From Bradyrhizobium sp. (GTDB lineage Bacteria; Pseudomonadota; Alphaproteobacteria; Rhizobiales; Xanthobacteraceae): DNA of 64,000 nucleotides. Location of the stretch: assembly GCF_028868675.1 (NCBI RefSeq), contig NZ_JAGWUA010000002.1, positions 600 to 64,599 of the forward strand, written 5' to 3'. This document shows positions 8,075 through 36,798 of this stretch, piece by piece. Within the stretch, counting starts at the first letter, position 1, and each line of letters starts with the position of its first letter. The notes under the pieces were generated by a model. That model searched no databases. It was not told where the DNA came from and saw nothing but the letters and a program-made list of their open reading frames with translations. A program made the translations under genes and the position numbers.

Positions 8075-8106
8075 GATGAAATCCCAAAAGAGCCGGGGCC
8101 TTGGCT

Positions 8107-17757: not shown

Positions 17758-18674
17758 CCGGCACGGTGCGTGTCACCGACGTCACCAAGGAGTACGGCCA
17801 GGTCAAGGCCGTCCGCGGCGCCTCGTTCGAGTTGGGGCAGGGCGAACTGGTGGCCTTGATCGGCCACAACGGCGCCGGCAAGACGACATTGATGAAGCTG
17901 ATGCTCGGGCTCATCCGTCCGACCGGCGGATCGATCGAGGTGCTCGGCGACAATCCGGCCGCCGGAGAGTTTTCGGGGAGACGGCGGCTCGGCTATCTGC
18001 CGGAGAACGTCTCGTTCGACGCAGCCCTGACCGGCCGCGAAACACAGGCGTTCTACGCCAGGCTGAAGCGGGAGCCGATCGCGAAAGCGCTGGAACTGCT
18101 CGACACGGTCGGGCTCGGCGTCGCCGCCGGGCGCCGCGTCGGCACCTATTCGAAGGGCATGCGACAGCGGCTTGGCCTCGCCCAGGCGCTGATCGGGCAT
18201 CCCAAGGTGCTGCTGCTGGACGAGCCGACCACGGGCCTCGACCCGGAGCTGCGGCAAACCTTCTACGAGATCATCGCGCGGCTCGCGGCCCAGGGCGCGA
18301 CGGTGCTGCTCTCCTCGCATTCCCTCACCGAGCTCGAGGAGCGCGCGGGGCGCGTGATCATCATGAACCGCGGCGTCAAGGTCGCCGACGGCTCGATCGA
18401 ACGGCTGCGCAACATCGCGCAGCTGCCGACCAGGATTCGGCTGAAGGTCGCCGGGCTCTCGCCCGCCGAATTGCCGCCGTGGCTGCCGAGCGGTGCGACC
18501 TGCAGACGGCTCAATGGCCACATCGTCGAGATCGATGCTGCGCCGGACCGGAAGATCGAGCTTCTGCACTGCGCAACGGCCGCGGGCAATTCCGTGGAAG
18601 ACGTCGATGTGGTCCAGCCGACTCTCGATGAGCTCTACGTCCACTTCCTCGGGCAGGCCGAGGTGACGTCATGA
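17754..18674 (+). CDS. nosF: NosF ABC ATPase
   Basis: GHNGAGKTT, YSKGMRQR, DEPTTGLD. Confidence 0.95.
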   Translation: MTGTVRVTDVTKEYGQVKAVRGASFELGQGELVALIGHNGAGKTTLMKLMLGLIRPTGGSIEVLGDNPAAGEFSGRRRLGYLPENVSFDAALTGRETQAFYARLKREPIAKALELLDTVGLGVAAGRRVGTYSKGMRQRLGLAQALIGHPKVLLLDEPTTGLDPELRQTFYEIIARLAAQGATVLLSSHSLTELEERAGRVIIMNRGVKVADGSIERLRNIAQLPTRIRLKVAGLSPAELPPWLPSGATCRRLNGHIVEIDAAPDRKIELLHCATAAGNSVEDVDVVQPTLDELYVHFLGQAEVTS

Positions 18675-19498
18675 ACGTGCCGATCATTGCGGCCAAGGAA
18701 ATCCATCAGGCGATCCGCAATCGCTGGGTGCTGGCCGCGACTCTCCTGCTCGCCGGGCTTGCCCTGTCGTTGACCTTTCTCGGCAGCGCGCCGACCGGCA
18801 GCGTCGGCGTCCGTGCCCTCGACGTCGTCATCGTCAGCCTTTCGAGCCTGACGATCTTTCTCGTTCCGCTGATTGCGCTTCTGATCTCGCATGACGCCAT
18901 CGTCGGCGACATGGAGCGCGGCACGATGCTGTTGCTGCTCAGCTATCCCGTCGCGCGATGGCAGGTGCTGATTGGCAAGTTCCTGGGGCACCTCGCGGTA
19001 TTGGGGTTCGCGACATGCTTCGGCTACGGGGTCGCCGTCGGCGCGTTGGCGGCGACCGGAAGCCGCATCGACCTCGACAGCCTTCTGGCCTTTGCAGCGA
19101 TGATCGGTTCATCCGTTCTGCTCGGCGCCGTGTTCGTCGCAATCGGCTATCTGGTGAGTGCCCTGGTGCGCGACCGCGGGACGGCGGCCGGTGTCTCCAT
19201 CGGACTTTGGCTGCTTCTCGTCCTGATCTACGACATGGCCTTGCTCGGCCTGCTCGCGCTCGACCAGGGCCGTCACATCTCCGCAGTGGCGTTGAATGCG
19301 ATGCTTCTTCTCAACCCGACGGACGTCTACCGGCTATTCAACCTGACCGGATTTGCCAATGTCAGCACCTTCGCGGGCATGGCCGGACTTGCCCAAAGCT
19401 CGTCCTTGTCCGTCCAGGCGCTGTTGTCAGCGTTGACGTTGTGGACGTTGGTCCCGCTGGGCCTCGCCGCAATTGCCTTCGCCCGGAGAGAGCTATGA
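18671..19498 (+). CDS. nosY: NosY ABC permease
   Basis: AKEI..IRNRW, ERGTMLLLLSYP, LLLNPTDVYRLFNL. Confidence 0.95.
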   Translation: MNVPIIAAKEIHQAIRNRWVLAATLLLAGLALSLTFLGSAPTGSVGVRALDVVIVSLSSLTIFLVPLIALLISHDAIVGDMERGTMLLLLSYPVARWQVLIGKFLGHLAVLGFATCFGYGVAVGALAATGSRIDLDSLLAFAAMIGSSVLLGAVFVAIGYLVSALVRDRGTAAGVSIGLWLLLVLIYDMALLGLLALDQGRHISAVALNAMLLLNPTDVYRLFNLTGFANVSTFAGMAGLAQSSSLSVQALLSALTLWTLVPLGLAAIAFARREL

Positions 19499-20028
19499 GG
19501 CGCCTCGCCATCGCCTTCGCGCTGCTGGCTTCGGTTACGCTGGCCGCCTGCCAGAAGGAGGCGGCGCAGCTTCCCGTCCCGCAGAAAATGACCGCCGAGG
19601 CCATCGGCCACTACTGCGGCATGAACGTGCTCGAGCATCCCGGGCCGAAGGGGCAGATCTTTGCCGCGAGCCTGATCGAGCCGGTGTGGTTCTCGTCCGT
19701 GCGGGACACCATCGCCTTCACCCTGCTGCCGGACGAGCCGAAAGACATCCAGGCGATCTATGTCTCCGACATGGCCAAGGCGCCGAGCTGGGACAAGCCG
19801 GGCGTCGACAACTGGATCGAGGCGCGCAGCGCGCTGTTCGTGATCGGCAGCCACGTCAAGGGTGGGATGGGCGGCGACGAACCCGTTCCGTTCTCGGACC
19901 GCGCGGCGGCGGAAAGATTTGCCGCCGAGAATGGCGGGCGCGTGGTGCCGTTCTCCGAAATCCCGCGCGACTACGTGCTGGCGTCGGGCGAGCCGCCGGA
20001 CCCGTCCGCGTCTGGGCAGTCGAACTAG
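19495..20028 (+). CDS. nosL: NosL copper chaperone lipoprotein
   Basis: Lipobox LAAC; GHYCGMNVLEHPGPKGQ; GGMGG. Confidence 0.95.
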   Translation: MRRLAIAFALLASVTLAACQKEAAQLPVPQKMTAEAIGHYCGMNVLEHPGPKGQIFAASLIEPVWFSSVRDTIAFTLLPDEPKDIQAIYVSDMAKAPSWDKPGVDNWIEARSALFVIGSHVKGGMGGDEPVPFSDRAAAERFAAENGGRVVPFSEIPRDYVLASGEPPDPSASGQSN

Positions 20029-20037
20029 GAGAAGGCC

Positions 20038-21033
20038 ATGCAGACACCGCTCTCACGTCGACGGTTCATCCGGATCTGCGCGGCAGCCGCGGGGCTGCCG
20101 GCCTTGTCGCTGGCAAGCAAATCGGAAGCCGCCACCGACCCCGTCACCTGGCGCGGAACCATGCTCGGCGCCATCGCGACGATGGAGATCCATCACCCGG
20201 ATCGAAGCGAAGCCCGGCGGTTGATCGGGGCCTCGCTTGCCGAAGCGCGTCGTCTGGAGCGCCTCTTCAGCCTGTATCTGAAGGATTCCGTACTGGTCGA
20301 ACTGAACCGGACCGGCATTCTGGTCGACCCGCCGGCCGAGATGGTCGATCTGCTGACGATCTCGAAGCGCTATGCCCAGTTAACCGGGGGCATGTTCGAT
20401 CCGACCGTGCAGCCGCTCTGGTCGCTTTATGCGGCGCACTTTTCGAAGCCGAATGCCGACCCAAACGGACCGCCGCGCGCCGAACTGGATGTCGCCCTTG
20501 CTCATGTCGACTGCAAGAATCTCGAAATCAGCCGCGACCGCATCGCGATGCCGCGCGGCTTCGCCGTCACCCTGAATGGCATCGCCCAGGGCTACGTCAC
20601 GGACAGGGTGGTCGACCTGCTGCGCGCCGAGGGCGTCGCTCACAGCCTCGTCGACATGGGCGAACCGCGCGCGATTGGGGCCCGTGCCGATGGAGCGCCC
20701 TGGGAAGTCGGCGTTGCGGACCCCGAGGTCGTCGGGCGGGCCGCAGCCGTCTTCCCCATCGTCGACCGCGCGGTGTCGACATCCGGCGCCTACGGGTTCC
20801 AATTCGACCCGCAAGGCCGCTTCAATCATCTGTTCGATCCGGCAACCGGCGGCTGCGCCAATCGTTATCGCAGCGTCACCACGGTCGCGTTCGACGCCAC
20901 CGCGGCGGACGCGATGTCGACCGCGTTCAGCTTCATGCCGCCTGCCGAGATCCGGGCCTTGATGACCGACGCCAGTATCGAGCGGGTTCATCTGATCGAC
21001 GCCCAGGGCGCCGCCCTGGATCTTGTTGCGTAG
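20038..21033 (+). CDS. nosX: NosX (ApbE-family FMN transferase)
   Basis: Tat SRRRFI; FDPTVQPL, NGIAQGY, VSTSG. Confidence 0.93.
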   Translation: MQTPLSRRRFIRICAAAAGLPALSLASKSEAATDPVTWRGTMLGAIATMEIHHPDRSEARRLIGASLAEARRLERLFSLYLKDSVLVELNRTGILVDPPAEMVDLLTISKRYAQLTGGMFDPTVQPLWSLYAAHFSKPNADPNGPPRAELDVALAHVDCKNLEISRDRIAMPRGFAVTLNGIAQGYVTDRVVDLLRAEGVAHSLVDMGEPRAIGARADGAPWEVGVADPEVVGRAAAVFPIVDRAVSTSGAYGFQFDPQGRFNHLFDPATGGCANRYRSVTTVAFDATAADAMSTAFSFMPPAEIRALMTDASIERVHLIDAQGAALDLVA

Positions 21034-21480: not shown

Positions 21481-22461
21481 CTATGCGAGCGTGGCGCCTG
21501 CATGGGCGGCAAGGCGGCCGGCTGCCTCGGTCGCCATTTTCTCGATGATGTCGGAGGCCGGCTCGATCGCGCCGATGAGTCCCGCGGCCTCGCCGAACCA
21601 GACGGCGGCATTGTCCGGATCGCCCTCCGCGAAGGCTTGCCGGTAGCGGGGGCCCTCGACGGCCGCGCTCTGCTCCAGCAAGTCCTCGCGACCGTGCCAG
21701 CGCGCGGTGAAGGCGTTGCGGCGAACCCTGGCCGTGAAACCGCGCGGCCAGGGAATCTGGCGCGCAATGTCGACGATGGTCGTTCGGATGGTCTCGTCGC
21801 CGCTCGCTTCGACGATCGCCTCGTGATGCCGGCGATGCACCAGCGCCTCCGCGGACGCCCACAGGCGCGTCCCGACCAGCACGCCCTCGGCTCCGAGCAT
21901 CAGCGCGGCGGCAAGCCCCCTGCCATCGGCGATGCCGCCTGCCGCGACCAGCAGGGCGTCGGGCGCATGGGCGGCGAGCAGATCGGCCGCTTCCGGCACG
22001 AATGAGAGTGCCCCTCGCAGGGCCCCGTGCCCGCCTGCCTCTGCATTCTGCGCGACGATGATGTCCGCGCCGACGTCGATCGCATCCCACACATGGTCGA
22101 TGGTCTGGCACTGGCATATCACCAGCGCGCCGGCGTTTCTGATCTCGGCGACGAAGGGCCGGGGATCGCCAAAGGACAGCATCACCGCCACCGGCTTGCG
22201 CCTGAGGACGTCGGTGAGCAGCGACGGAGATTTTCGCAGGGACCACGTGATGAAGCCGACGCCGACGCGTTGGCCGGCGGCGACGTCGAACTGCTCGTCC
22301 AGCCACGTCGAATCGCCGTAACCGCCTCCGATGAGGCCGAGGCCGCCGGCCGCACTGACGGCGGCCGCCAGGGCGCCGCCGGCGGCGAAGGCCATGGGCG
22401 CGGAAATGATGGGATGGCGAATGTTCAGCGTGCGGGTCAGTCGGTTCGTGATGACAGCCAT
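21481..22461 (-). CDS. Nitronate monooxygenase/FabK-like FMN protein
   Basis: PIISAPMA, EAGGHG, VAAGGIADGRG, GVLVGTR. Confidence 0.85.
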   Translation of the reverse strand: MAVITNRLTRTLNIRHPIISAPMAFAAGGALAAAVSAAGGLGLIGGGYGDSTWLDEQFDVAAGQRVGVGFITWSLRKSPSLLTDVLRRKPVAVMLSFGDPRPFVAEIRNAGALVICQCQTIDHVWDAIDVGADIIVAQNAEAGGHGALRGALSFVPEAADLLAAHAPDALLVAAGGIADGRGLAAALMLGAEGVLVGTRLWASAEALVHRRHHEAIVEASGDETIRTTIVDIARQIPWPRGFTARVRRNAFTARWHGREDLLEQSAAVEGPRYRQAFAEGDPDNAAVWFGEAAGLIGAIEPASDIIEKMATEAAGRLAAHAGATLA

Positions 22462-22663: not shown

Positions 22664-22679
22664 AATCAAATATTTGAAT
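22664..22679. promoter_or_regulatory. Putative SqrR-like operator (autoregulatory)
   Basis: AATC-AAATATTT-GAAT, 16 nt upstream of the ArsR gene start; 1 mismatch to ATTC-N8-GAAT. Confidence 0.6.
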
Positions 22680-22695
22680 TTGAAAGGCAAACCGG

Positions 22696-23043
22696 ATGGC
22701 CCTGCCGAAGATCAAGATTGTCGACTCGTCCCTCGACGTCGACAAGATGGCCGGCAACGCCCACCTGGCGAGCGAGTTCCTCAAGGCGCTCGCTCACGAA
22801 TCCCGCCTTCTCATCCTCTGCCTGCTGACCGAAGGGGAGAAGACGGTGGGCGAGCTCGAGGAGCTGGTCTCGCGGCGGCAATCCACCGTCTCGCAGCAAC
22901 TGGCGCGGCTGCGGCTCGACGGCCTGGTCTCCGCGCGCCGCGAGGGAACGACGATCTATTACCGTCTCGCCGACGGGAAGGTTCAGGTCGTGCTGGAGGC
23001 GCTCTACAAGGTCTTTTGCGGCAGCCGGGCCGGCCGACGTTAG
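22696..23043 (+). CDS. ArsR/SmtB repressor of SqrR/BigR type (persulfide sensor)
   Basis: FLKALAHESRLLILCLL, SQQLARLR, IYYRL, LYKVFC; one Cys in the helix-2 region and one near the C-terminus. Confidence 0.85.
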   Translation: MALPKIKIVDSSLDVDKMAGNAHLASEFLKALAHESRLLILCLLTEGEKTVGELEELVSRRQSTVSQQLARLRLDGLVSARREGTTIYYRLADGKVQVVLEALYKVFCGSRAGRR

Positions 23044-23098
23044 TCCGGCGCGCGAATTCGCGATCCGCCGCGGACCGGGAGCGGCATGACCCGCCGGA

Positions 23099-23326
23099 TC
23101 AGCCGGTGTGCCGGATCAGGAAGCGATAGACGCCGCCGTCGGCCGCCGATTCTACGAGCTCGTTGCCTGTCGTCTTGCAGAAGGCGGCGAAATCCGCGAC
23201 CGAGCCGGGGTCGGTCGACAGCACCTCGAGCGTGCCGCCCGCCGGAACGTCCTTCAACGTCTTCTTCGCGCGCAAGATCGGGAGCGGGCAGTTGAGACCC
23301 TTTGCGTCGAGTGTCTTGTCGGCCAT
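23099..23326 (-). CDS. tusA: TusA-family sulfur carrier
   Basis: LDAKGLNCPLPIL, TDPGSVADF. Confidence 0.93.
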   Translation of the reverse strand: MADKTLDAKGLNCPLPILRAKKTLKDVPAGGTLEVLSTDPGSVADFAAFCKTTGNELVESAADGGVYRFLIRHTG

Positions 23327-23383
23327 TGGCGGTTCCTGCTGTCGGATCGTCGGATGGTTGAAGGTTGGGCTGGTCGTCGAGCG

Positions 23384-23890
23384 TCAGATGAAGAGGTTGA
23401 TGTCCGATTTCAGCGCTTTCTCCATGTAGGTCGCGGCACCGCCGAGCGAAAGATTGTCGATCATGTCCTCGGTCTTGAACTCGAACAGGTCCATCGTCAT
23501 CTGACAGGCGATCAGCTTGATCTCGGATTCGATCGCGGCCTCCCGCAGCTCCTCGATCGAGGCGACGCCCTTCTTCTTGATCATGTTCTTCATCATCAGC
23601 GAGGCGCCGGCATCGACGCCGGGCAGCATGGCGACGATGTTGGGCATGCCCATGTGCATGCCCATCATCGGCATCTTCATCGCGGGATTGCCGAGCGCCG
23701 AGACCTGCAGATCGAGCTTCTTCTTCAGCAGCGACAGCCCGTAGAACGTGAAGAACATGGTCACATCGACGCCCATGGCGGCGGCCGTCGTGCCGAGGAT
23801 GAAGGGCGGATAGGCCCAGTCGAGCGTGCCCTTGGTGACGATGATCGTCATCGTCTTGGCGTTGGCGCTGCCCATTGCTGCGTCAGACAT
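23384..23890 (-). CDS. dsrE2: DsrE2-family sulfur carrier
   Basis: IIVTKGTLDWAYPPFIL, FFTFYGL, IACQMTMDLF. Confidence 0.9.
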   Translation of the reverse strand: MSDAAMGSANAKTMTIIVTKGTLDWAYPPFILGTTAAAMGVDVTMFFTFYGLSLLKKKLDLQVSALGNPAMKMPMMGMHMGMPNIVAMLPGVDAGASLMMKNMIKKKGVASIEELREAAIESEIKLIACQMTMDLFEFKTEDMIDNLSLGGAATYMEKALKSDINLFI

Positions 23891-23931
23891 TCTATTCTCC
23901 GGATCGTTCGATGGCGGACGTCAAGGGGCGT

Positions 23932-25215
23932 TCAGCCGGTGGAGACCTTCTTCAGCTTGGCGATGCCGAGCATGCCAAGCGCGGCCGTTTCGTAGAACGG
24001 CTCGCTGGAGCCCTTGCGCATCTTGCGCAGGAAGTACTTCTCGAAGCCGATCTTGGCGGCATGGACCCATTTTCCGGACGACGACCAGTTGATGTTGCGC
24101 GGCGGAATCTGGGGCTGGGCGACGAAGGCGATGCCCGAATCGCCGAAGTCGGCGAGACAGACCGCGTTCCATGTGCCCTGGTGGGTCGGTTCCTTGCCGC
24201 GCAGCAACTGGCCGATGTTCATCGCCGTCGCGGTCACCATGGACTCGATCATGAAGCCGGTCTTCGGCACGCCGCACGGCACCGGCGTGGGGCCGACCGG
24301 GGGAATGGCGACGCAGACGCCGACCGAGAAGACGTTCTTGAACTTCGGATTGCGCTGATGCTTGTCGACCAGAACGAACCCGCGCGGGTTGACCAGGCCG
24401 TCGATGCCGCGCAGCGGGGCGATGCCGCGGAACGCCGGCAGCATCATCGAGAAACCGAACGGAATCTCGCTGGTACCCTTGACGGAGCCGTCCTCGGCGA
24501 TCTCCTCGATCGTCATCTTGCCGTCATCGACGCGTTTCACGCGCGAGTTGGTCATCCATTTGATGTGATGCTCGCGCATCTCGCTCTCGAGGATGCCCTT
24601 GGTGTCGCCGACGCCGTCGAGGCCGAGATGGCCCACATACGGCTCCGCCGTCACGAACGTCATCGGGACGCGATCCCTGATCTTGCGGCGACGCAGCTCG
24701 GTGTCGAGGATGAACGTGAATTCGTAGGCGGGCCCGAAGCATGACGCGCCCTGGACCGCGCCGACCACGATGGGTTTCGGGTTGGCGCAGAACGCCTCGA
24801 AATTCGCGGCCGCCTTCTCCGCGTGGTCGATGTGGCAGATGGAATTGGTGAATCCGTTCGGACCCAGGCCCTCGATCTCGTCGAAGGCGAGCTCGGGCCC
24901 GGTTGCGATGACCAGATAGTCGTAGCGCAGCGTCGAGCCGTCCTCGAGCTGGAGCCGGTTCTCGTCCGGCATGACCTTGCTGACCGGAACCGCCTTGAAC
25001 GCGATGCCGCGCCTCGCGAAGGTCGGCGCCAGATCGACCTCGATCGACTCGCGCGTGCGCCAGTTGACCGCGACCCAGGGGTTGGAAGGAACGAAATGAT
25101 AGACGGGATCCTTCGTGACGACCGTGAGCTTGTCCTCCGGTCGCATCTGATCCTTCATCTCGTAAGCCATGATGACGCCGCCAAGCCCCGCGCCCATGAT
25201 GACGATTTCCGCCAC
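23932..25215 (-). CDS. sqr: Sulfide:quinone oxidoreductase (type I/SqrA-like)
   Basis: GAGLGG, FVPSNPW, NSICHIDHA, GASCFGPAYE, GVPKTGFMIESM, VCLADFGD; GTG start with GGAGG RBS. Confidence 0.93.
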   Translation of the reverse strand: MAEIVIMGAGLGGVIMAYEMKDQMRPEDKLTVVTKDPVYHFVPSNPWVAVNWRTRESIEVDLAPTFARRGIAFKAVPVSKVMPDENRLQLEDGSTLRYDYLVIATGPELAFDEIEGLGPNGFTNSICHIDHAEKAAANFEAFCANPKPIVVGAVQGASCFGPAYEFTFILDTELRRRKIRDRVPMTFVTAEPYVGHLGLDGVGDTKGILESEMREHHIKWMTNSRVKRVDDGKMTIEEIAEDGSVKGTSEIPFGFSMMLPAFRGIAPLRGIDGLVNPRGFVLVDKHQRNPKFKNVFSVGVCVAIPPVGPTPVPCGVPKTGFMIESMVTATAMNIGQLLRGKEPTHQGTWNAVCLADFGDSGIAFVAQPQIPPRNINWSSSGKWVHAAKIGFEKYFLRKMRKGSSEPFYETAALGMLGIAKLKKVSTG

Positions 25216-25271
25216 GGCCGTCCCTCCATGTTTGGCAGGCGGGTATGACAACCTCGCCCGTTCTTTATATT

Positions 25272-25287
25272 ATCAGTATATTCGACT
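25272..25287. promoter_or_regulatory. Degenerate SqrR-like operator between sqr and the DsrC paralog
   Basis: ATCAGTATATTCGACT, 11/16 identical to the site upstream of dsrA, within an AT-rich patch. Confidence 0.4.
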
Positions 25288-25349
25288 ATTCAGATTTGTC
25301 TAATCATCTCTGATTGGATTGTCGCGCGCGCAAATGGGAACGATGTGCA

Positions 25350-25658
25350 ATGGCTGGCGAAGTCGATGCGGACGGATATCTCGTTGATCCCGCTGATTGG
25401 ACGGAAGAGTGGGCGATCGCCACTGCGCGCGCCGCGCAGCTCGAGCTGACGCCCGAGCACTGGGCCGCGATCCGCTTCATGCGCGCGTTCCTGGAGCTTC
25501 ATCAGGTCGCTCCCGACGCGCGGTTCGTCATGCGCCATCTGAGCGAGACGAGCGGAGCGCCGCGCAATCGTCTGTTCGAGCTGTTTCCCTACGGCTATCC
25601 CGGCCAGGCCTGCAAGATTGCGGGCATGCGGCGGCCACGCGCCTGGAGCACCGGCTGA
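25350..25658 (+). CDS. DsrC/TusE-family paralog lacking the C-terminal Cys
   Basis: DADGYLVDP..W, LTPEHW, LFPYG..QACKIAGMRRPRAWSTG. Confidence 0.85.
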   Translation: MAGEVDADGYLVDPADWTEEWAIATARAAQLELTPEHWAAIRFMRAFLELHQVAPDARFVMRHLSETSGAPRNRLFELFPYGYPGQACKIAGMRRPRAWSTG

Positions 25659-25683
25659 TCCGGCGCGGCGTGCGCGCAGGCGT

Positions 25684-25896
25684 TCAGGTCTTGGTCTGCG
25701 CAGCCGCCCAGTCGCCCATCGATCGCGCCCAGCGTGCGGCCGTTGGCGCGTCGAGTTCGAGAATGGTGTAGCGGCTGCCTTCGCGGATGGTGACGCGCAG
25801 GAGCCGCATGCCGCTCTCGAAGTCGACCTCCGCGAGCCAGATCTCACGGCCGTAGGGTGCCGCAATGGTGTCGATCCGCGTGTTCGCCGTCGTCAT
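25684..25896 (-). CDS. Small hypothetical protein (70 aa)
   Basis: PYGREIWL.EVDFESGMRLLRVTIREGSRYTILELD; 4-bp overlap with the upstream ORF. Confidence 0.7.
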   Translation of the reverse strand: MTTANTRIDTIAAPYGREIWLAEVDFESGMRLLRVTIREGSRYTILELDAPTAARWARSMGDWAAAQTKT

Positions 25897-26093
25897 TTTG
25901 CGGTCCGCTCTCCGCGATAGAAGGCAAGCTCGAGGATAGCCTCCCATTTGCGCGGTGTGTCCGGAAACTCTGGCTTGATATCGAAGTAGAGATGGATCTC
26001 GCCGCGGCGCGCGGCCTGCACCACGAGATCCTCGAGCTGGTCGAACGTCGTAATGTCCGGGTGGGCGATGAGGAGATCGCTGATCTGGGCCAT
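25893..26093 (-). CDS. Small hypothetical protein (66 aa)
   Basis: ISDLLIAHPDITTFDQL...DIKPEFPDTPRKWE; operonic behind the TauD-like gene. Confidence 0.7.
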   Translation of the reverse strand: MAQISDLLIAHPDITTFDQLEDLVVQAARRGEIHLYFDIKPEFPDTPRKWEAILELAFYRGERTAK

Positions 26094-26100
26094 TGCTGTC

Positions 26101-27033
26101 TCAATCCTCCGATCGGCCGATGCGGCCATGGTAGCGAATTCTGTAGAGCAGGCGGCCGCCGGTCGCGGCGGAGCGGAAGGCGCTCCGGTCGTGCAGGACG
26201 TTGTTGCAGATCAATCCCTGGCCCGGCGACATCCTGGTGCGCAGCACGAGGGGATCGGTGCCCAGGATCCGCTCGAGCGCGGCGACGGCCCTTCTGGTCG
26301 GCTCGTCGTTGCGCCACACGATGTTGCGCTTGCGGGCCGTGTAGCGCATGCCGAGCGTGCCGCCGGGCTGCACGAAGAACACCGGCCCAACATTGACCGG
26401 CCGGATGGTACCGTTTGCCTCGGCATTCTCCGGAATGCTCATGGCGGACGAATGCATCAGCGCGACGATATGCGCCGGGTCCTCGTCGCGCAGCCTGATA
26501 TAGGCGATCTCGGGGTCGAGCAGCCGGTTTTCTCCGCCGTGCTCGGCGCCTTGCGCGCAATGCAGCAGCATCGCCTGCACCGAACGGCCGGCACCGTGAA
26601 AGTTGTAATAGCCGTCGGTGTGCCAGGCGATGGCCCGATCTGTGTAGGGAATATAGCCGTAGCGTTCGCCGCCCTGGACCGCCTCGATGCGCACGACGCC
26701 GTCGGCCTCGGCCGATCGATGATCCTCGATCGCGCGCAGGCCGAAGGTCGCGCCGAACGAAAGCAGGCTCGCTCGCACCGACGCTTCGTCGTCGTCGATG
26801 TGGCCGAATGCATAGACGGCCATGTTGGCCCGATCGCAAGAAGCTGCGATTGCGTCGCGTTCTCTCGTGCTCACGCGCCGCGGGTCACGGATCTCGACGG
26901 CGATGTCTTCGACCCGCGCGGGATACCGGAGGAGCTTGATGTCGCGCCATCGCCGGTAACTGCTGTCGTCCGCGAGATTCAACGGGCCCGCATGCGTCTG
27001 GAATTCTTCTTCCGATTCTGCGGCCGCAGCCAT
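26101..27033 (-). CDS. TauD/TfdA-like Fe(II)/2-oxoglutarate oxygenase
   Basis: WHTDGYYN (HxD), LLHC, NNVLHDR, RLLYRIRY. Confidence 0.85.
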   Translation of the reverse strand: MAAAAESEEEFQTHAGPLNLADDSSYRRWRDIKLLRYPARVEDIAVEIRDPRRVSTRERDAIAASCDRANMAVYAFGHIDDDEASVRASLLSFGATFGLRAIEDHRSAEADGVVRIEAVQGGERYGYIPYTDRAIAWHTDGYYNFHGAGRSVQAMLLHCAQGAEHGGENRLLDPEIAYIRLRDEDPAHIVALMHSSAMSIPENAEANGTIRPVNVGPVFFVQPGGTLGMRYTARKRNIVWRNDEPTRRAVAALERILGTDPLVLRTRMSPGQGLICNNVLHDRSAFRSAATGGRLLYRIRYHGRIGRSED

Positions 27034-27070
27034 GCCTTGTGTCCTCGCTCGCGCCGAAGTCAGTTGATTG

Positions 27071-27110
27071 CTTGACCGCGGTTGCGAGTCATGTATTCTA
27101 ATATTCGAAT
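27071..27110 (+). promoter_or_regulatory. Putative dsrA sigma70 promoter with overlapping SqrR-type operator
   Basis: CTTGAC(27071)-N17-TATTCT; ATTC-TAATATTC-GAAT at 27095-27110. Confidence 0.7.
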
Positions 27111-27229
27111 TTAGTGGTATTCTGACTCAGCCACGCGAAAAAGCAAACGGCCGAGTGCGCGAGAGCGAAAGTCTCCGCGGGTCGGCAGGGAATGGAAACG
27201 GTCGCCGCGCAACAGCGGGAGGGCAGTCT

Positions 27230-28540
27230 ATGTCCGACGAAGACAAACACGGCCAGGCATCTTCCGGCGAACCGCCGGCAGCGCGTCATTCGACGCCGAT
27301 GCTGGATCAGCTCGAAGCGGGGCCGTGGCCGAGTTTCGTCACCGGGCTGAAGCGGCTGCGCGACGCCGGCGACAAGGCGTATGCGCCGATGATGAACGAC
27401 CTGCTCGGCCAGCTCGAACATTCCTACGAGAACCGGACCGGCTACTGGAAGGGCGGCACCGTCTCGGTGTTCGGCTATGGAGGCGGCGTCATTCCCCGCT
27501 TCTCGGAAGTCGCCGACAAATTCCCGCAATCGAAGGAGTTCCATACGCTGCGTGTGCAGCCGCCCGCCGGCTATCACTACACGACCGACCTGCTGCGTCA
27601 GCTCTGCGACATCTGGGAGAAGTACGGCTCGGGGCTGATCGCCCTGCACGGCCAGAGCGGCGACATCATGTTCCAGGGCTGCTCGACGGAGAACGTCCAG
27701 AAGGCGTTCGACGAGTTCAACGAGATCGGCTTCGATCTCGGCGGCGCCGGTCCGGCGTTGCGGACCTCGACGAGCTGCGTCGGCCACGCGCGATGCGAGA
27801 AGTCCTGCTACGACGAGGTGAGGGCGCACCGTTCCGTCATCAACGAATTCCTCGACGAGATGCATCGGCCGGCGCTGCCGTATAAATTCAAATTCAAGTT
27901 CTCCGGCTGCGGCAACGACTGCGTCAACGCCATCCATCGCGCCGACTTCGCCGTGATCGGCACCTGGCGCGACGACATGAAGGTCGACCAGGAAGAAGTG
28001 AAGAAATACGTCGCCAAGGCAGGCCGCAAATACACCATCGACCACGTCATCGCGATGTGTCCGACGCGCGCCCTGAGCCTGAACGACGACGACACGCTGG
28101 ATGTCGACAACAAGTCGTGTGTGCGCTGCATGCACTGCCTGAACGTCATGAACAAGGCGCTTTCGCCCGGCGACGACCGCGGCGCGTCGATCCTGATCGG
28201 CGGCAAGCGCTCGCTCAAGATCGGCGATCTCATGGGCACGATGATCGTGCCGTTCATCAAGCTCGAGACCGACGAGGACTATCAGAGGCTGATCGAGTTC
28301 GGGCGCCGGCTGATCGACTTCTTCGCCGAGAACGCGCTCGAGCACGAACGCATCGGCGAGACCATGGATCGCATCGGGCTGCCTGCGTTCCTCGAAGCGA
28401 TCGGCGTCGACCCCGATCCCAACATGGTGAACCATCCGCGGACCTCGTCGTTCGTCCGCACCGACGACTTCACCGTCGAGGCCGAGAAGTATTTCGAACG
28501 CAAGGCCCGCGAGGCGGGCCTCAACGTCGCCGCGGACTGA
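27230..28540 (+). CDS. dsrA: Dissimilatory sulfite reductase alpha subunit (oxidative type)
   Basis: GPWPSFVTGLK, YWKGG, CVGHARCE, FKFKFSGCGNDC, CVRCMHC. Confidence 0.98.
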   Translation: MSDEDKHGQASSGEPPAARHSTPMLDQLEAGPWPSFVTGLKRLRDAGDKAYAPMMNDLLGQLEHSYENRTGYWKGGTVSVFGYGGGVIPRFSEVADKFPQSKEFHTLRVQPPAGYHYTTDLLRQLCDIWEKYGSGLIALHGQSGDIMFQGCSTENVQKAFDEFNEIGFDLGGAGPALRTSTSCVGHARCEKSCYDEVRAHRSVINEFLDEMHRPALPYKFKFKFSGCGNDCVNAIHRADFAVIGTWRDDMKVDQEEVKKYVAKAGRKYTIDHVIAMCPTRALSLNDDDTLDVDNKSCVRCMHCLNVMNKALSPGDDRGASILIGGKRSLKIGDLMGTMIVPFIKLETDEDYQRLIEFGRRLIDFFAENALEHERIGETMDRIGLPAFLEAIGVDPDPNMVNHPRTSSFVRTDDFTVEAEKYFERKAREAGLNVAAD

Positions 28541-28628
28541 TCGCGCCGGGTATTGGCTCCGCGGCCGGACCGGACCGGCCGCGGACGCCACCCGACAACG
28601 GGAAGGGATCGTGAGGAGTGTCGCCAAC

Positions 28629-29708
28629 ATGAACAGCACCGTTCAGCCGCGCCGTCCCGTCGAGACGGGGGTGCCGGATCCGTTCCCCTACATGCATCCG
28701 CTCATGCGCAAGAACTACGGCGCCTGGGCTTGGCACGATCGCCTGCGCCCCGGCGTGCTCCACCACGTCGCCAAGAGCGGCGACCAGATCTGGACGGTGC
28801 GTGCCGGCACCCAGCGCCAGATGGACGTGTTTACGATCCGCAAGCTCTGCGACATCGGCGACAAATATGCGGAAGGCCACGTCCGCTTCACGACGCGCAG
28901 CAACATCGAGTTCATGGTGAGTTCGGTCGACAAGGTGCAGCCCCTGATCGATGCGCTGAACGCGGCCGGCTTTCCGGTGGGCGGTACGGGCAACTCCGTC
29001 TCGATGATCTCGCATACGCAGGGCTGGCTGCACTGCGACATTCCGGGCACCGACGCCTCCGGCGTCGTCAAGAGCCTGATGGACATGATGCATCACGAGT
29101 TCACGCACGAGGAGATGCCGAACCGGGTGCGCATCACCACGTCGTGCTGCCAGATCAACTGCGGCGGCCAGGGCGACATCTCGATCAACGTCCAGTACAC
29201 CAAGCCGCCGAAGATCAATCACGATCTCGTCTCGAAGGTCTGCGAGCGCCCCGCGGTGGTGGCGCGATGCCCGGTGGCGGCGATTCGTCCGGCGCTGGTC
29301 GACGGCAAGCCGTCGCTCGAAGTCGACGAGAAGAAATGCGTCTGCTGCGGTGCCTGCTATCCGCCGTGCCCGCCGATGCAGATCAACGGCGCCGACTCCA
29401 CCAAGATCGCGGTGTGGGTGGGCGGCAAGCATTCCAACGCCCGCTCCAAGCCGACGTTCCACAAGCTCGTCGTCGCCAACCTGCCGAACAATCCGCCCCG
29501 CTGGCCGGAGGTCACGGAAGTCGTTCGCAAGATTCTCTATGCCTACAAGGAGAATGGCCGCGATTTCGAGCGCCTCGGCGAGTGGATCGAGAGGATCGGC
29601 TGGCCGCGGTTCTTCGAGCTGACGGGCTTTGCCTTCACCAAGCACCACCTCGATACGTGGACTGGTGCTCGAAAAACCATGAACATGTCGGCACACGTGC
29701 ACTTCTGA
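28629..29708 (+). CDS. dsrB: Dissimilatory sulfite reductase beta subunit
   Basis: HTQGWLHCD, TSCCQINCGG, CVCCGAC, NNPPRWPE, ERLGEWIERIGW. Confidence 0.98.
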   Translation: MNSTVQPRRPVETGVPDPFPYMHPLMRKNYGAWAWHDRLRPGVLHHVAKSGDQIWTVRAGTQRQMDVFTIRKLCDIGDKYAEGHVRFTTRSNIEFMVSSVDKVQPLIDALNAAGFPVGGTGNSVSMISHTQGWLHCDIPGTDASGVVKSLMDMMHHEFTHEEMPNRVRITTSCCQINCGGQGDISINVQYTKPPKINHDLVSKVCERPAVVARCPVAAIRPALVDGKPSLEVDEKKCVCCGACYPPCPPMQINGADSTKIAVWVGGKHSNARSKPTFHKLVVANLPNNPPRWPEVTEVVRKILYAYKENGRDFERLGEWIERIGWPRFFELTGFAFTKHHLDTWTGARKTMNMSAHVHF

Positions 29709-29774
29709 GCCGCTCATGGCGCCTTTGACGCCGTCGAAGGCCACTCCCGCCACAGGCCAAGAGGAGATCGCGAC

Positions 29775-30167
29775 TTGCGCTTCGGAATCGTCGTCAACGA
29801 GGGGCCTTATACCCGCCAGGCGTCGGACTCGGCCTATCTGTTCGCCAAGGCGGCGTTGGCGAAGGGGCACGAGATCTTCCGCGTCTTCTTCTATCACGAC
29901 GGCGTCAACAACGGGACGCGGTTCACGGTGCCGCCGCAGGACGACCGCAACCTGCAGCGGTTGTGGAGCGAGCTCGCGGAGACGCACAAGCTCGATCTCG
30001 TGGTGTGCATCGCGGCGGCGCAGCGCCGCGGCATACTCGACGCCAATGAGGCGAAACGGCAGGGCAAGGACGGCGACAACATCGCGCCCGGCTTTCGCAT
30101 CTCGGGTCTTGGACAACTGATCGAGGCGGGCATCCAGGCCGATCGCCTGGTCGTTTTCGGCGATTGA
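29775..30167 (+). CDS. dsrE: DsrE sulfurtransferase subunit
   Basis: TTG start after GAGGAG; FFYHDGV, VCIAAAQRRG, GFRISGLGQL. Confidence 0.95.
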   Translation: MRFGIVVNEGPYTRQASDSAYLFAKAALAKGHEIFRVFFYHDGVNNGTRFTVPPQDDRNLQRLWSELAETHKLDLVVCIAAAQRRGILDANEAKRQGKDGDNIAPGFRISGLGQLIEAGIQADRLVVFGD

Positions 30168-30177
30168 GGAATGCGCG

Positions 30178-30594
30178 ATGTCTGAGCAGGCCAACAGGAA
30201 GAAGTTCCTCTACGTCAACCGCAGGGCGCCGTACGGGACGATCTATGCGCTCGAATCGCTCGAGGTCGTGCTGATCGGCGCGGCCTTCGAGCAGGACGTC
30301 AGCCTCGCCTTCATCGATGACGGCGTCTACCAGCTGGTCGCCGGGCAGGACACCGCCGGCGTCGGCATGAAGAATTTCTCGAAGACCTATCGCGCGCTCG
30401 GCGACTACGAGGTGCGCAAGCTCTATGTCGAGCGCGAATCGCTCGCTGAGCGCGGCCTCACGGTCGAGGACCTGATGCCGATCACCTATGAGGACGAGGA
30501 CGACGACTACGCCGAGAAGCCGTCGATCCATCTCACCGACCGTTCGGAGATGGCGAGACTCATCGCCGAACAGGACGTGATCCTGAGCTTCTGA
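30178..30594 (+). CDS. dsrF: DsrF
   Basis: RAPYGTIYALESLE, FIDDGVYQL, ESLAERGL. Confidence 0.95.
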   Translation: MSEQANRKKFLYVNRRAPYGTIYALESLEVVLIGAAFEQDVSLAFIDDGVYQLVAGQDTAGVGMKNFSKTYRALGDYEVRKLYVERESLAERGLTVEDLMPITYEDEDDDYAEKPSIHLTDRSEMARLIAEQDVILSF

Positions 30595-30596
30595 GG

Positions 30597-30911
30597 ATGC
30601 GCATGCCGACCCTGCACACCGTCAACAAGTCGCCCTACGAGCGCTCGTCGCTGGAATCCTGCCTCGATCACGTCGCCGAGGGCGACAGCGTCCTGATGTT
30701 CGAGGATGCGGTCGTCGGCGCCCGCCGCGGCGGAAAATTCATCGCGACGCTGAAGGCCGAGCGGCCGTCATGCGCGCTCTACGTGCTCGGACCGGATCTC
30801 GCGGCGCGCGGCATCAAGCCGGCGGATATCGCGGAGGGAATTTCAGTGGTGGACTATGGCGGCTTTGTCGACCTTGCCGTCGCCAACGCACGGGTCTGCG
30901 CCTGGCTCTGA
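30597..30911 (+). CDS. dsrH: DsrH
   Basis: LHTVNKSPY, FEDAV, DLAARG, VDYGGFVDL. Confidence 0.93.
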   Translation: MRMPTLHTVNKSPYERSSLESCLDHVAEGDSVLMFEDAVVGARRGGKFIATLKAERPSCALYVLGPDLAARGIKPADIAEGISVVDYGGFVDLAVANARVCAWL

Positions 30912-30940
30912 CATAAGGTCGATCATTCGGGAGTGAGACA

Positions 30941-31276
30941 ATGAGCGGATATCAAATCAACGGCACGGTCGCCGAGCACGACGAGGAAGGCTATCTCAAG
31001 GACATCGGCGAATGGAATACCGACCTCGCCGGTCTGATCGCCAAGAGCGAGAACATCGAGATGACGCCGGATCACTGGGAGGTCGTGAATTTCCTCCGTG
31101 ATTACTACGAGGAATATCAGATCGCGCCGGCCGTCCGCATCCTCGTGAAGGAGATGACCAAGAAGTTCGGCAAGGAGAAGGGCGATCAGAAGGCGCTCTA
31201 CGCCCTGTTCCCGTACGGCCCGGCGAAGCAGGCTTGCAAGATCGCCGGCCTGCCGAAGCCGACCGGTTGCGTCTGA
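30941..31276 (+). CDS. dsrC: DsrC
   Basis: C-terminus QACKIAGLPKPTGCV with both conserved Cys. Confidence 0.97.
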   Translation: MSGYQINGTVAEHDEEGYLKDIGEWNTDLAGLIAKSENIEMTPDHWEVVNFLRDYYEEYQIAPAVRILVKEMTKKFGKEKGDQKALYALFPYGPAKQACKIAGLPKPTGCV

Positions 31277-31312
31277 CGGGGCAGCGCAGCAGTCCGCGCG
31301 GGAGAGAGGGCG

Positions 31313-32038
31313 ATGCTGACGTCGGTCTTTGCGGTGATGCTCTATATGGCCACGCTCGTGATGGCGGCGGGCCTCGGTCATCGCATCTGGCTTTACGCGA
31401 CGACGCCCGCGCCGCTGAAGATTCCGACCATGCCGGCGCCGACGACGCGCGGCGGCGTCGTGCTGCGAATGCTGTCCGAGGTCGTGGTCTTCCGCAGCCT
31501 GTTCAAGGCGAACAAATGGATCTGGCTGTTCGGCTGGGTCTTCCATGCGGCGCTGGCTCTGGTCGTGATGCGCCACCTGCGATACTTCCTGCAGCCCGTG
31601 CCGGAAGCCATCGTTCTGATCCAGCCGTTCGGCGTGCTTGCGGGCATCGCGATGGTCGCTGCGCTCGTCGCGCTCTGGGCGCGTCGCCTCCTCGTGCCCC
31701 GTATCCGCTACATCAGCAGCCCGTCGGACCACCTGATGCTGGTCCTCCTGCTTGCGATCGGCGCAAGCGGGCTCGCGATGAAGTTCTGGGCCCACACCGA
31801 CATCGTGGCCGCGAAGGCCTTCTGCCTGGGCCTCGTCTATCTCGATTGGCAGCCGCTGCCGGCCGATCCGGCGCTGCTGGTCCATCTGACCCTGGTCGCG
31901 GTCCTGATGCTGATCTTCCCGTTCTCGAAACTGCTGCATGCGCCCGGCGTGTTCTTCAGTCCCTCGCGCAATCAGGCGGACGACAGCCGGGAGCGGCGGC
32001 ACGTTCCGCCCGTTCGGCTCGAAGCCGTGCCTCGCTAG
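31313..32038 (+). CDS. dsrM: DsrM membrane cytochrome b (NarI-like)
   Basis: PAPLKIPT, FHAAL, RHLRYF, SDHLML, HLTL, FPFSKLLH. Confidence 0.95.
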   Translation: MLTSVFAVMLYMATLVMAAGLGHRIWLYATTPAPLKIPTMPAPTTRGGVVLRMLSEVVVFRSLFKANKWIWLFGWVFHAALALVVMRHLRYFLQPVPEAIVLIQPFGVLAGIAMVAALVALWARRLLVPRIRYISSPSDHLMLVLLLAIGASGLAMKFWAHTDIVAAKAFCLGLVYLDWQPLPADPALLVHLTLVAVLMLIFPFSKLLHAPGVFFSPSRNQADDSRERRHVPPVRLEAVPR

Positions 32039-32057
32039 GCCCCAGGAGAACAGCGCC

Positions 32058-33614
32058 ATGGCGGCAGAACAGAGCAAGTTTGATCCGGTCGCCGACGGAC
32101 GGGGCGATCCGCTCGAGATGCCCCGGCTTGCCTGCGGAGCCATGGCGGCATCGAAGCCTTACGTCGCGACTCCGGCACATCAGCAGGCGCTCGGCTTTCC
32201 CGGTGAACTGGTCGAGGACTGGCAGGACAAGGCGATTGCCCGTCTCGGCGAACTGCTCGAGGAGTCGCGGTCGCTGCGCGTCTATCTGGACGCCTGCGTT
32301 CGCTGCGGCGCCTGCACCGACAAGTGCCACTACTTTCTGGGTACCGGCGATCCCAACAACATGCCGGTCGCCCGCCAGAACCTGCTGCGCAAGATCTACC
32401 GGCGCTACTTCACCCTGAGCGGCAAGCTCTTTCCCTGGCTCGTCGGCGCGGAGGATCTCACCAAGGACGTGCTCGAGGAGTGGTACAGCTACTTTCACCA
32501 GTGCTCGCAGTGCCGCCGATGCTCGGTGTTCTGCCCGTATGGCGTCGATACCGCCGAAATCTCCATGGCCGCGCGCGACATCATGGATAGCATCGGCCTC
32601 GGCCAGAAATATTCCAACGAGATCATCGGCAAGGTCTTCAACATCGGCAACAACCTCGGCCTGCAGCCCAAGGCGCTCAAGGCCACGCTTGCGGGGCTGG
32701 AAGAGGACATCGAGGAGGAGACCGGCGTCCCGGTCCGCCTGCCGCTCGACGAGAAGGGCGCCACCATCCTGCTGGTGACGCCGAGCGCCGACTTCTTTGC
32801 CTCGCCGCACATGGAGGGCCTGATCGGCTACGCCAAGGTCCTGCACGAGTCCGGCGTGAGCTGGACGCTGAGCACCCAGGCCTCGGAGGCCGCCAATTTC
32901 GGCATGTTCGTCGGGTCGCAGGATGCGATGCAGAAGATCGCGCTGCGCATCCGCAAGGCGGCGCAGGATCTCGGCGTCAAGCGCATCGTCTTCGGCGAAT
33001 GCGGGCACGCCTGGCGGGTGGCCTACAGCTTCCTCGACACCCTCGCCGGGCCCTTCGATTTTCTCGACCGCAACTATCCGGTTCCGCAGCACATCTGCGA
33101 GTTCACCCACGACCTCATCCAGCAGGGCAAGCTGCGGTTCGACAAGTCGAAGAACGACGAGTTTCGCCTGACGTTTCACGATTCCTGCAACGTGGCGCGC
33201 GCCTCGCGCATGGGGCGAGAGCCGGGCGGTCAGTTCGAGATTCCCCGCGCCGTTCTTCGCGCGGTCTGCAACCACTTCTTCGACATGGCGCCGGACACGA
33301 TCCGCGAGAGCACGCTGTGCTGTGGCGGCGGCGGCGGCCTGCTCACCGACGAGTTGATGGACCTCCGCCTCAAGGGGGCGATGCCGCGCATGCGCGCGCT
33401 GCGGGAGGTCGCCGAGGAGCATGGCGTGACGCACATGGCCGCGATCTGCGCCATCTGCAAGGCGCAGTTCTCGAAGGTTCTGCCGCAATACGGTTTCGAG
33501 ATGGACGCAATCGTCAGCGTTCACCAGATGGTCTCGAACGCGCTGGTCCTGACCGGATCGCGCCAGGAGGCCGAGCTGGATGGTAAGGCCGAAGTCGCCT
33601 TGCAGGAGGCGTGA
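32058..33614 (+). CDS. dsrK: DsrK (HdrD-like Fe-S subunit)
   Basis: CVRCGACTDKC, CSQCRRCSVFC, GECGH, HDSC, CCGGGGG, CAIC. Confidence 0.96.
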   Translation: MAAEQSKFDPVADGRGDPLEMPRLACGAMAASKPYVATPAHQQALGFPGELVEDWQDKAIARLGELLEESRSLRVYLDACVRCGACTDKCHYFLGTGDPNNMPVARQNLLRKIYRRYFTLSGKLFPWLVGAEDLTKDVLEEWYSYFHQCSQCRRCSVFCPYGVDTAEISMAARDIMDSIGLGQKYSNEIIGKVFNIGNNLGLQPKALKATLAGLEEDIEEETGVPVRLPLDEKGATILLVTPSADFFASPHMEGLIGYAKVLHESGVSWTLSTQASEAANFGMFVGSQDAMQKIALRIRKAAQDLGVKRIVFGECGHAWRVAYSFLDTLAGPFDFLDRNYPVPQHICEFTHDLIQQGKLRFDKSKNDEFRLTFHDSCNVARASRMGREPGGQFEIPRAVLRAVCNHFFDMAPDTIRESTLCCGGGGGLLTDELMDLRLKGAMPRMRALREVAEEHGVTHMAAICAICKAQFSKVLPQYGFEMDAIVSVHQMVSNALVLTGSRQEAELDGKAEVALQEA

Positions 33615-33625
33615 GGGAGCGGGTC

Positions 33626-35575: not shown

Positions 35576-35579
35576 AGGG

Positions 35580-36041
35580 ATGCGGCGACCCCGGACCATG
35601 GCGCCGATCGTGGCCTCGATGGTCATCGTCGCCGCTGTCTCCGGCATGAGCGCGTTTGCCGGGGACGGCACGCCCGTTCCGCATCCGCCCAGGGGCAAGG
35701 GCGAGCGCTGCGTCGCCGACACCGGCTTCATGCGCAAGAACCACATGAAGATGCTGCTGCATCACCGCACCGAGGCCGTGCACCTCGGCGTGCGTACGCC
35801 GCAATACGACCTCAACGGCTGCGTGAGCTGCCATGCGGTCGAGGGTTCCGACGGCAAGCCGGTGAGTTTTGCGAGCGATCGGCACTTTTGCAAATCTTGC
35901 CACAGCTACGCGGCGGTCTCGATCGACTGCTTCGAGTGTCATGCCTCGCGGCCCGAGGTGCAGGGCAAGACCGCATTCGTCGCGCCGGCCGACAGAGAGG
36001 TTGCAGCGATCGATCGATACCTGCGGGACATCAGGCCATGA
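35580..36041 (+). CDS. dsrJ: DsrJ triheme cytochrome c
   Basis: CVSCH, CKSCH, CFECH; MRKNHM; start could be 35598. Confidence 0.93.
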   Translation: MRRPRTMAPIVASMVIVAAVSGMSAFAGDGTPVPHPPRGKGERCVADTGFMRKNHMKMLLHHRTEAVHLGVRTPQYDLNGCVSCHAVEGSDGKPVSFASDRHFCKSCHSYAAVSIDCFECHASRPEVQGKTAFVAPADREVAAIDRYLRDIRP

Positions 36042-36781: not shown

Positions 36782-36798
36782 GGGACGGCGGAGCGCGA

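Follow-up and report, generated by a model that had tools for sequence, protein, structure and literature searches.

The 64,000-nucleotide stretch of Bradyrhizobium sp. DNA analysed here (contig NZ_JAGWUA010000002.1; hereafter the window, to whose positions all coordinates refer) carries a gene for an ArsR-family regulator of the SqrR type, sqrR, together with sqr, dsrE2 and tusA and the genes of the reverse Dsr (rDsr) pathway. Oxidation of sulfane sulfur, whether stored or imported, to sulfite in the bacterial cytoplasm proceeds by two main routes, of which rDsr is one. Here we examine three predicted operator sites in the promoter regions of these genes and the proposal, made earlier from the sequence, that the SqrR-type protein controls the dsr operon directly. 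The features concerned are listed in Table 1.

Gene content of the locus and the SqrR-type regulator

Genes were assigned from the list of open reading frames (ORFs) with Pfam and NCBIfam profiles.

Table 1 Features of the sqrR-sqr-dsr region of the window
Feature	Position	Strand	Basis or remark
NMO-like gene	21481-22461	-	upstream side of sqrR
Box 1, AATCAAATATTTGAAT	22664-22679		17 bp 5' of the sqrR ATG; putative autoregulatory operator
sqrR, ArsR/SmtB winged helix-turn-helix repressor of SqrR type, 115 aa	22696-23043	+	Pfam HTH_5; PDB match
tusA, sulfur carrier	23099-23326	-	final gene of the sqr-dsrE2-tusA unit; Pfam TusA, E 3.5e-23
dsrE2, sulfur carrier	23384-23890	-	NCBIfam SulfCarrDsrE2, 218 bits (cut-off 210)
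sqr, sulfide:quinone oxidoreductase-like flavoprotein	23932-25251	-	Pfam Pyr_redox_2; weak SQR-model match
Box 2 region	25264-25295		orthologous box 25280-25295, ATTCGACTATTCAGAT, plus abutting weak box 25264-25279
dsrC-like gene, 102 aa	25350-25658	+	divergent from sqr; Pfam DsrC, E 1.8e-25
DUF6967 gene	25684-25947	-	Pfam DUF6967; in the operon divergent from dsrA
Small ORF (~66 aa)	25893-26129	-	in the tauD-like operon, divergent from dsrA
tauD-like gene	26101-27033	-	Pfam TauD; in the operon divergent from dsrA
Candidate dsrA promoters	27072-27123	+	TTGACC-16-TATTCT, 27072-27099; TTCTAA-16-TATTCT, 27096-27123
Box 3, ATTCTAATATTCGAAT	27095-27110		between the tauD-like gene and dsrA; putative operator of dsrA and of the divergent operon
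rDsr operon, dsrABEFHCMKLJOPN	27230-39428	+	NCBIfam and Pfam profiles

The dsrA and dsrB products scored 580 and 514 bits against their NCBIfam models. The other members of the operon encode TusD/C/B-type DsrEFH, DsrC, DsrM, DsrK, DsrJ, DsrO, DsrP, a CobB-like DsrN and a DsrL-like flavoprotein, so that by gene content the oxidative set (dsrAB with dsrEFH, dsrC, dsrMKJOP and dsrL) is complete. The system is assigned to the oxidative, or reverse, type because dsrEFH and dsrL are present; the nearest relatives are loci of the alphaproteobacterial sulfur-oxidizer type. The sqr ORF begins at a TTG at 25251, and its true start probably lies near 25215, as judged from the 427-aa gene calls of its orthologues in L081-L083, the closest long contigs, which have identical synteny.

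The 115-aa product of sqrR matches Pfam HTH_5 with an E value of 2.6e-11. When compared by phmmer with all PDB sequences, its top match was SqrR of Rhodobacter capsulatus (RcSqrR; 6o8l and related entries) with an E value of 7e-31, followed by HlyU (4.5e-20) and BigR (3pqj; 1.6e-19). The bit scores were 110 for SqrR, 75 for HlyU and 73 for BigR, versus 43 and 36 for the metal sensors SmtB and CzrA, and the alignments to the SqrR, HlyU and BigR structures are full-length. In a gap-free alignment of 99 residues the protein is 57% identical to RcSqrR. Against the curated NCBIfam BigR equivalog (NF040642) the protein scored 93.3 bits, below the cut-off of 155, and it is therefore not regarded as a BigR orthologue. 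Judged by these comparisons, the product of 22696-23043 is a close SqrR homologue and a regulator of the SqrR type; it is the sole SqrR-like gene in the window.

In RcSqrR, exposure to persulfide leads to a tetrasulfide between C41 and C107 and to loss of DNA binding (PMC5595413). The window SqrR has exactly two cysteines, C42 and C108, and both align with these sensing residues, which bears out the two-cysteine pattern noticed in the original prediction. The crystal structure of SqrR on its operator shows bases contacted by R60, Q61, Q66 and K84, of which Q66 reads most of the ATTC half-site, and phosphates contacted by H33, R36, S65, Q67 and R72 (bioRxiv 10.64898/2026.05.15.721447). Eight of these nine contact residues (H33, R36, R60, Q61, S65, Q66, Q67 and R72) are identical in the window SqrR at an offset of +1.

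For comparison, GTDB species representatives were scanned with DsrA, which gave 80 loci with 71-92% DsrA identity, nearly all from Alphaproteobacteria (Hyphomicrobiales, Rhodobacterales and Rhodospirillales). The triad of a TauD-like protein (Fe/2OG-oxygenase family), the ~66-aa ORF and DUF6967 lies divergently adjoining dsrA in 63 of these 80 loci by tblastn. The top PDB match of the TauD-like protein is TmpA, with an E value of only 0.002, and no mention of DUF6967 was found in the literature searched; the triad thus appears to be an unstudied gene set tightly linked to dsr. The DsrC-like paralogue lacks the penultimate, substrate-carrying cysteine of true DsrC, and its C-terminus, ACKIAGMRRPRAWSTG, is kept in relatives as ACKIAGM(R/K)RPR(A/I)WSTG. 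Its gene stands between sqr and DUF6967 in at least 9 of the 11 loci that carry it, and has the sqr promoter region in common with sqr.

Predicted boxes in the window and in related loci

The published SqrR box is ATTC-N8-GAAT. The three sites of the original prediction were found at their positions, box 3 and box 1 as given in Table 1 and a third, ATCAGTATATTCGACT, at 25272-25287. Box 3, upstream of dsrA, is a perfect match to the published box, which the original prediction had named for Rhodobacter SqrR, and box 1 differs from it by one mismatch. The pattern AWTCNAATATTNGAAT, proposed as common to the two best sites, matches (≤1 mismatch) only at 22664 and 27095 in the window versus an expectation of 0.02, a figure for a pattern that was derived post hoc.

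For a test not derived from the window, a symmetric 16-bp position weight matrix (PWM) was built from the dsrA-upstream sites of other genomes, with the window and its closest relative excluded, and each intergenic region was compared with 2000 dinucleotide shuffles of itself. Box 3 scored 26.5 bits and box 1 19.0 bits, and in neither case did any of the 2000 shuffles score as high. On the sqr side the best site was 25280-25295, with 6.0 bits and p=0.09, and the register at 25272 gave 4.9 bits. Boxes 1 and 3 are thus solid sites, far beyond chance; the third, taken alone, does not reach significance. The register 25280-25295 was fixed because the alignment of the sqr side, a block conserved in eight species, places there a perfect ATTCGACTATTCGAAT of L081-L083, relative to which the window box is decayed in its right half-site. 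The weaker sqr site of the original prediction therefore stands as a region, orthologous to a perfect box, with its register 8 bp off; the box is retained as a candidate by orthology only, as it is not above chance alone.

A further PWM match, at 60710 (16.3 bits), was rejected as a member of the regulon. It belongs to TGCATATA-type repeats, a different motif, beside a BzdR/BoxR-like regulator and aromatic-CoA genes. These repeats (60710-60770) lie upstream of an enoyl-CoA-hydratase-like gene within a cluster (57037-62502) that encodes a regulator with HTH_3 and shikimate-kinase domains, an architecture like that of BzdR/BoxR, with an AMP-dependent ligase nearby. The cluster appears to be one for aromatic-CoA catabolism, with an operator of its own and no relation to SqrR.

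Conservation of the motif upstream of alphaproteobacterial dsrA, which had been named as a check on the original prediction, was assessed in the 63 loci where the triad divergently adjoins dsrA. A box with at most one mismatch precedes dsrA in 42 of them; dinucleotide shuffles gave 13.0±3.1, with 22 the highest count among 300. Perfect boxes number 8 versus 0.8 expected; as the loci have common ancestry, these counts are of non-independent events. An unbiased count of 7-mers in 64 intergenic regions, including that of the window, ranked CATATTC highest (32/64) and AATATGA second (29/64). The two together form the box core, which is the most widely common element of the dsrA intergenic region. 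In a MAFFT alignment of 12 species with diverged flanks, the box columns TATTC..A.ATT...AT are invariant; the only other invariant columns are a TAtTAT hexamer 7 bp 3' of the box, two bases of a GAAAAG-like leader element, two further, isolated bases of the leader, the ribosome-binding site GGGAG and the region of the start codon. The GAAAAG-like element (window 27140-27150), which is thus partly conserved, lies about 20 nt past the conserved -10-like hexamer.

At the centre of the motif is a conserved A/T core, NAATATTN or NCATATTN, which is undescribed for R. capsulatus. Rhodomicrobium loci from metagenome-assembled genomes (MAGs; L010/L013) have ATTCACAAATATGAAT upstream of dsrA, and the gammaproteobacterial loci L071, L073 and L074 have no box there. 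In the MAG locus L008 the tauD-like triad is missing and ATTCACAGATATGAAT is still found about 150 bp upstream of dsrA; that the box is retained there without the triad argues for dsrA as a target in its own right. The same locus (7472-10000) contains two SqrR-like ORFs, both without the C-terminal sensing cysteine, and a truncated sqr remnant.

The boxes of relatives are not confined to dsrA. When 24 loci of some 20 kb were scanned with the PWM, matches of at least 18 bits lay nearly all upstream of dsrA, sqr or sqrR, or between sqr and dsrE2. Over 20 kb in L081-L083, scores of 16 bits or more are confined to the three intergenic regions homologous to those of the window, with none at the neighbouring nir or sox genes. 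The exact form ATTC-N4-ATTCGAAT occurs nine times in 87 loci, every time upstream of dsrA or sqr. The box upstream of sqrR is kept in the four closest genomes (L043, L081 and L082 among them), and a box also precedes sqrR in L003, L023 and L005. In the Beijerinckiaceae MAG locus L035 (2565-4251) a perfect ATTCTCTTATTAGAAT lies 5' of a gene for a YeiH-like membrane protein, with sqrR after it in the same orientation. The same motif therefore marks the sqr and sqrR promoters in relatives, in agreement with the motif proposed as common to the sqr, sqrR and dsrA promoters. The sqrR-tusA-dsrE2-sqr group is linked to dsr in many genomes: it adjoins dsr in the window, L043 and L081-L083, and lies on the same contig, 10-16 kb off, in L009 and L019.

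The window has a YeiH-like gene (PF03601) of its own, which with a LysR regulator directly follows the dsr cluster (40615-42683); no box lies there. The LysR gene (40615-41499) was considered as a dsr regulator and rejected, as it pairs with the adjacent YeiH-like gene and the box, T-N10/N12-A, was judged unlike the usual LysR T-N11-A. Further downstream, a NosZ-like protein of 801 aa with nitrous-oxide-reductase propeller and cupredoxin domains is encoded at 43448-45853 (+), and ORFs at 18671-21033, upstream of sqrR, resemble nos accessory genes in a tentative reading.

Promoter geometry

The original prediction had placed box 3 over the -10 element of the dsrA promoter. This holds for the promoter called by a scan of the window, TTGACC-16-TATTCT at 27072-27099. 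Its TTGACC is conserved in the five closest genomes only, and the hexamer at 27118-27123 corresponds to the invariant TAtTAT of the 12-species alignment. In L035 and L006 the scan pairs this conserved hexamer with a TTCACA or TTCTCA inside the box, at a 16-bp spacer and with 10/12 and 9/12 matches. Conservation thus favours a -10 at 27118-27123, and the likelier position of box 3 is over the -35 and spacer of that promoter, not over a -10. On both readings the box and elements of the core promoter overlap, an arrangement that fits a repressor. The box lies 61 bp from the tauD-like start and 135 bp from the dsrA start; a minus-strand promoter is predicted in L006, with its -10 over the same hexamer, from which the tauD-like transcript would cross the box.

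Divergent promoters are also predicted on the sqr side, TAGACA-16-TATACT on the minus strand (25302..25275) and ATGACA-17-TATTAT on the plus strand (25245..25273), which places box 25280-25295 within the spacer of the predicted sqr promoter and at +1 of the predicted dsrC-like promoter. The sqrR promoter was not called by the scan; it may consist of a conserved -35-like TTTACC (22632) and a -10-like TAGAAC/TAAAAT, with box 1 over the expected start.

Proposed regulon, alternatives and significance

We consider it probable that a SqrR repressor released by persulfide controls sqrR itself, sqr-dsrE2-tusA, the dsrC-like gene, the tauD-like triad and dsrABEFHCMKLJOPN. The motif is assigned to SqrR because the residues that read it are as in RcSqrR and it matches the published operator of that protein, because boxes stand at sqr, the canonical target, and at sqrR in several lineages, because sqrR-tusA-dsrE2-sqr is physically linked to dsr, and because a SoxR-like paralogue encoded beside sox in L082/L083, 41% identical to the window SqrR, has S and P at the R60 and Q61 positions and no box is found near sox. 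We infer from homology that the window SqrR binds the boxes, that this binding represses and that persulfide releases the protein. The reduced dimer would bind 16-bp boxes of the ATTC-N8-GAAT type with an A/T-rich centre that overlap the core promoters of its own gene, of the divergent sqr-dsrE2-tusA and dsrC-like units and of the divergent triad and dsrABEFHCMKLJOPN, and would block RNA polymerase at all three promoter regions. When sulfide is present, basal SQR activity would make sulfane sulfur, which would bridge Cys42 and Cys108 (as a tetrasulfide in R. capsulatus) and cause the repressor to leave the DNA. As a result sqr, the TusA/DsrE2 carriers, the dsrC-like gene, the tauD-like triad and rDsr would be switched on jointly, opening a route from sulfide to sulfane sulfur, through a TusA/DsrE2/DsrEFH/DsrC relay, to rDsr. 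The inducer would then be the substrate of the pathway. The chemistry and the repression in this scheme are taken from the R. capsulatus paradigm and would apply here by analogy.

The locus was found in metagenomes only, and two metatranscriptome runs contain 6% of its words. A soil metatranscriptome, run X25, contains many short contigs that are 90-95% identical to dsrA and dsrB of the window (27270-29680). Related rDsr genes are thus transcribed in soil.

Several points weigh against control by SqrR as proposed. The bare pattern ATTC-N8-GAAT (≤1 mismatch) is not enriched in the window, with 16 sites found and 16 expected, so that the simple consensus alone proves nothing; the sqr-side site has the low score given above although sqr is the canonical SqrR target; and the left half-site of box 1 varies among the closest relatives, being AATC or AGCC. 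In many loci with a box, no sqrR is found in the nearest 10 kb, the copies of L009 and L019 lying just beyond, and common ancestry reduces the weight of the locus counts. The A/T core and an inner ATTC repeat (ATTC-N4-ATTC-GAAT) are absent from the R. capsulatus operator, ATTCACAACTCGGAAT. Both are specific to the clade and fall on -35-like sequence, so that a share of the conservation may belong to a promoter rather than an operator and could reflect elements such as the -35 TTCACA. The metatranscriptome runs give only related dsrAB fragments, none over the leader or the intergenic region, and no 5' information. In the protein, the base-contacting wing residue K84 of RcSqrR is replaced by T85, and most relatives keep K.

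T stands at the K84 position in the SqrR of the window (codon 22948-22950), L043 and L081, and the dsrA boxes of these three have A at box position 6 (window 27100), ATTCTAAT; K-bearing relatives have C there, ATTC[A/T]CAT. This is a possible case of protein-DNA co-variation, within a single clade only.

Of the alternatives, it is unlikely that the boxes are real operators of another regulator, such as an ArsR paralogue like SoxR/sHdrR from another part of the genome or the product of the dsrC-like gene, the 66-aa ORF or the DUF6967 gene, and that SqrR controls only its own gene and sqr. A second ArsR-type gene does lie beside sox in L082/L083, the two related repressors of Hyphomicrobium denitrificans have common targets, the box has clade-specific features unlike the R. 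capsulatus operator, and our view is of 64 kb of the Bradyrhizobium sp. genome; the sqrR and sqr promoters nevertheless carry this motif too, base-reading residues are changed in the SoxR-like paralogue, the sox genes have no box near them, and some box-bearing loci are without the dsrC-like gene and the tauD-like triad. We see only a slight chance that the AT-rich block 5' of dsrA is mainly core promoter (-35 TTCACA/TTCTCA, spacer and divergent -10), with a coincidental fit to ATTC-N8-GAAT, and that dsr is regulated otherwise or not there. Conservation of both half-sites, including the GAAT, at spacer positions for which a promoter has no sequence requirement, speaks against this, as do the recurrence of the palindrome at sqr and sqrR promoters of different geometry and an enrichment that holds versus dinucleotide shuffles of the same regions. 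What makes such a promoter conceivable is that the best conserved promoter has its -35-like hexamer within the box, that the box in reverse complement gives a -10-like GAGAAT/TAGAAT, that AT-rich intergenic regions inflate PWM scores versus the genome background and that the bare consensus is common in the window.

It is more improbable still that the box regulates only the divergent operon of the tauD-like gene, small ORF and DUF6967, with dsr expressed from an independent promoter that the box leaves unaffected. The shorter distance to the tauD-like start in the window and the minus-strand promoter predicted in L006, with its transcript across the box, would fit such an arrangement, but the spacing between the box and the conserved plus-strand -10 is constant at 7 bp, and the box overlaps the -35, persists 5' of dsrA without the triad in L008 and in the window also covers the scan-predicted dsrA -10. 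Control by SqrR of the regulon proposed above is the reading we prefer; all parts of the original interpretation that could be checked by computation agreed with it. A wider claim, that SqrR is the ancestral direct master switch of rDsr sulfur oxidation across Hyphomicrobiales, Rhodobacterales and related Alphaproteobacteria, gating sqr, tusA/dsrE2 and rDsr as well as the tauD-like/DUF6967 triad, appears to us evenly balanced between true and false.

The nearest known systems place the finding. R. capsulatus SqrR is a dimeric repressor of the ArsR family with two sensing cysteines, as predicted for the protein of the window, and its recognition helix, RQxxVSQQLARLR, is conserved here (PMC5595413; bioRxiv 10.64898/2026.05.15.721447). 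It likewise has an ATTC-N8-GAAT operator, sqr as a target and operators that overlap promoters, which here are predicted sites. R. capsulatus differs in having no dsr genes, whereas here sqrR is physically linked to tusA-dsrE2-sqr and dsr, the boxes have a conserved A/T core and often an inner ATTC, and the window SqrR has T in place of K84. The SoxR and sHdrR proteins of H. denitrificans are likewise alphaproteobacterial, SqrR-related two-cysteine repressors that respond to sulfane sulfur and control a cytoplasmic pathway of sulfane-sulfur oxidation with its TusA and DsrE-type carriers; their targets are sHdr-LbpA and Sox, not rDsr, and no statement of a consensus operator for them was found in the text consulted (PMC10451225, PMC12423496). 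BigR of Xylella and Agrobacterium and YgaV of Escherichia coli fall in this same subfamily of ArsR proteins, with a two-cysteine switch, autoregulated operons and a similar ygaVP box; BigR, however, governs a blh/persulfide-dioxygenase operon of detoxification, not a respiratory sulfur-oxidation operon. In Allochromatium vinosum, reduced sulfur induces dsr expression, and to our knowledge no dedicated transcriptional repressor or operator of dsr has been defined there. The literature searched contained no SqrR-type control of dsr and no transcriptional regulator or operator for rDsr. What is described here is a conserved new target of a known type of regulator, not a new kind of system, with SoxR/sHdrR of Hyphomicrobium acting on sHdr and sox as the nearest precedent.

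If true, the wider claim of a master switch would supply the first transcription factor and operator to be defined for an rDsr operon, and would draw the tauD-like triad and a DsrC paralogue without the penultimate cysteine into the sulfur-oxidation pathway. The conserved SqrR-type box at dsrA in dozens of soil, freshwater and marine Alphaproteobacteria makes control of rDsr by SqrR a precise and cheaply testable hypothesis, with SqrR as the first concrete, testable candidate regulator for the rDsr pathway. As a sequence signature, the box may also help to predict sulfide-inducible genes from metagenomes, among them genes of unknown function such as the tauD-like triad and the dsrC-like paralogue. 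Control by SqrR would account for a possible joint induction of sulfide oxidation, sulfur trafficking and rDsr by an intermediate of the pathway itself.

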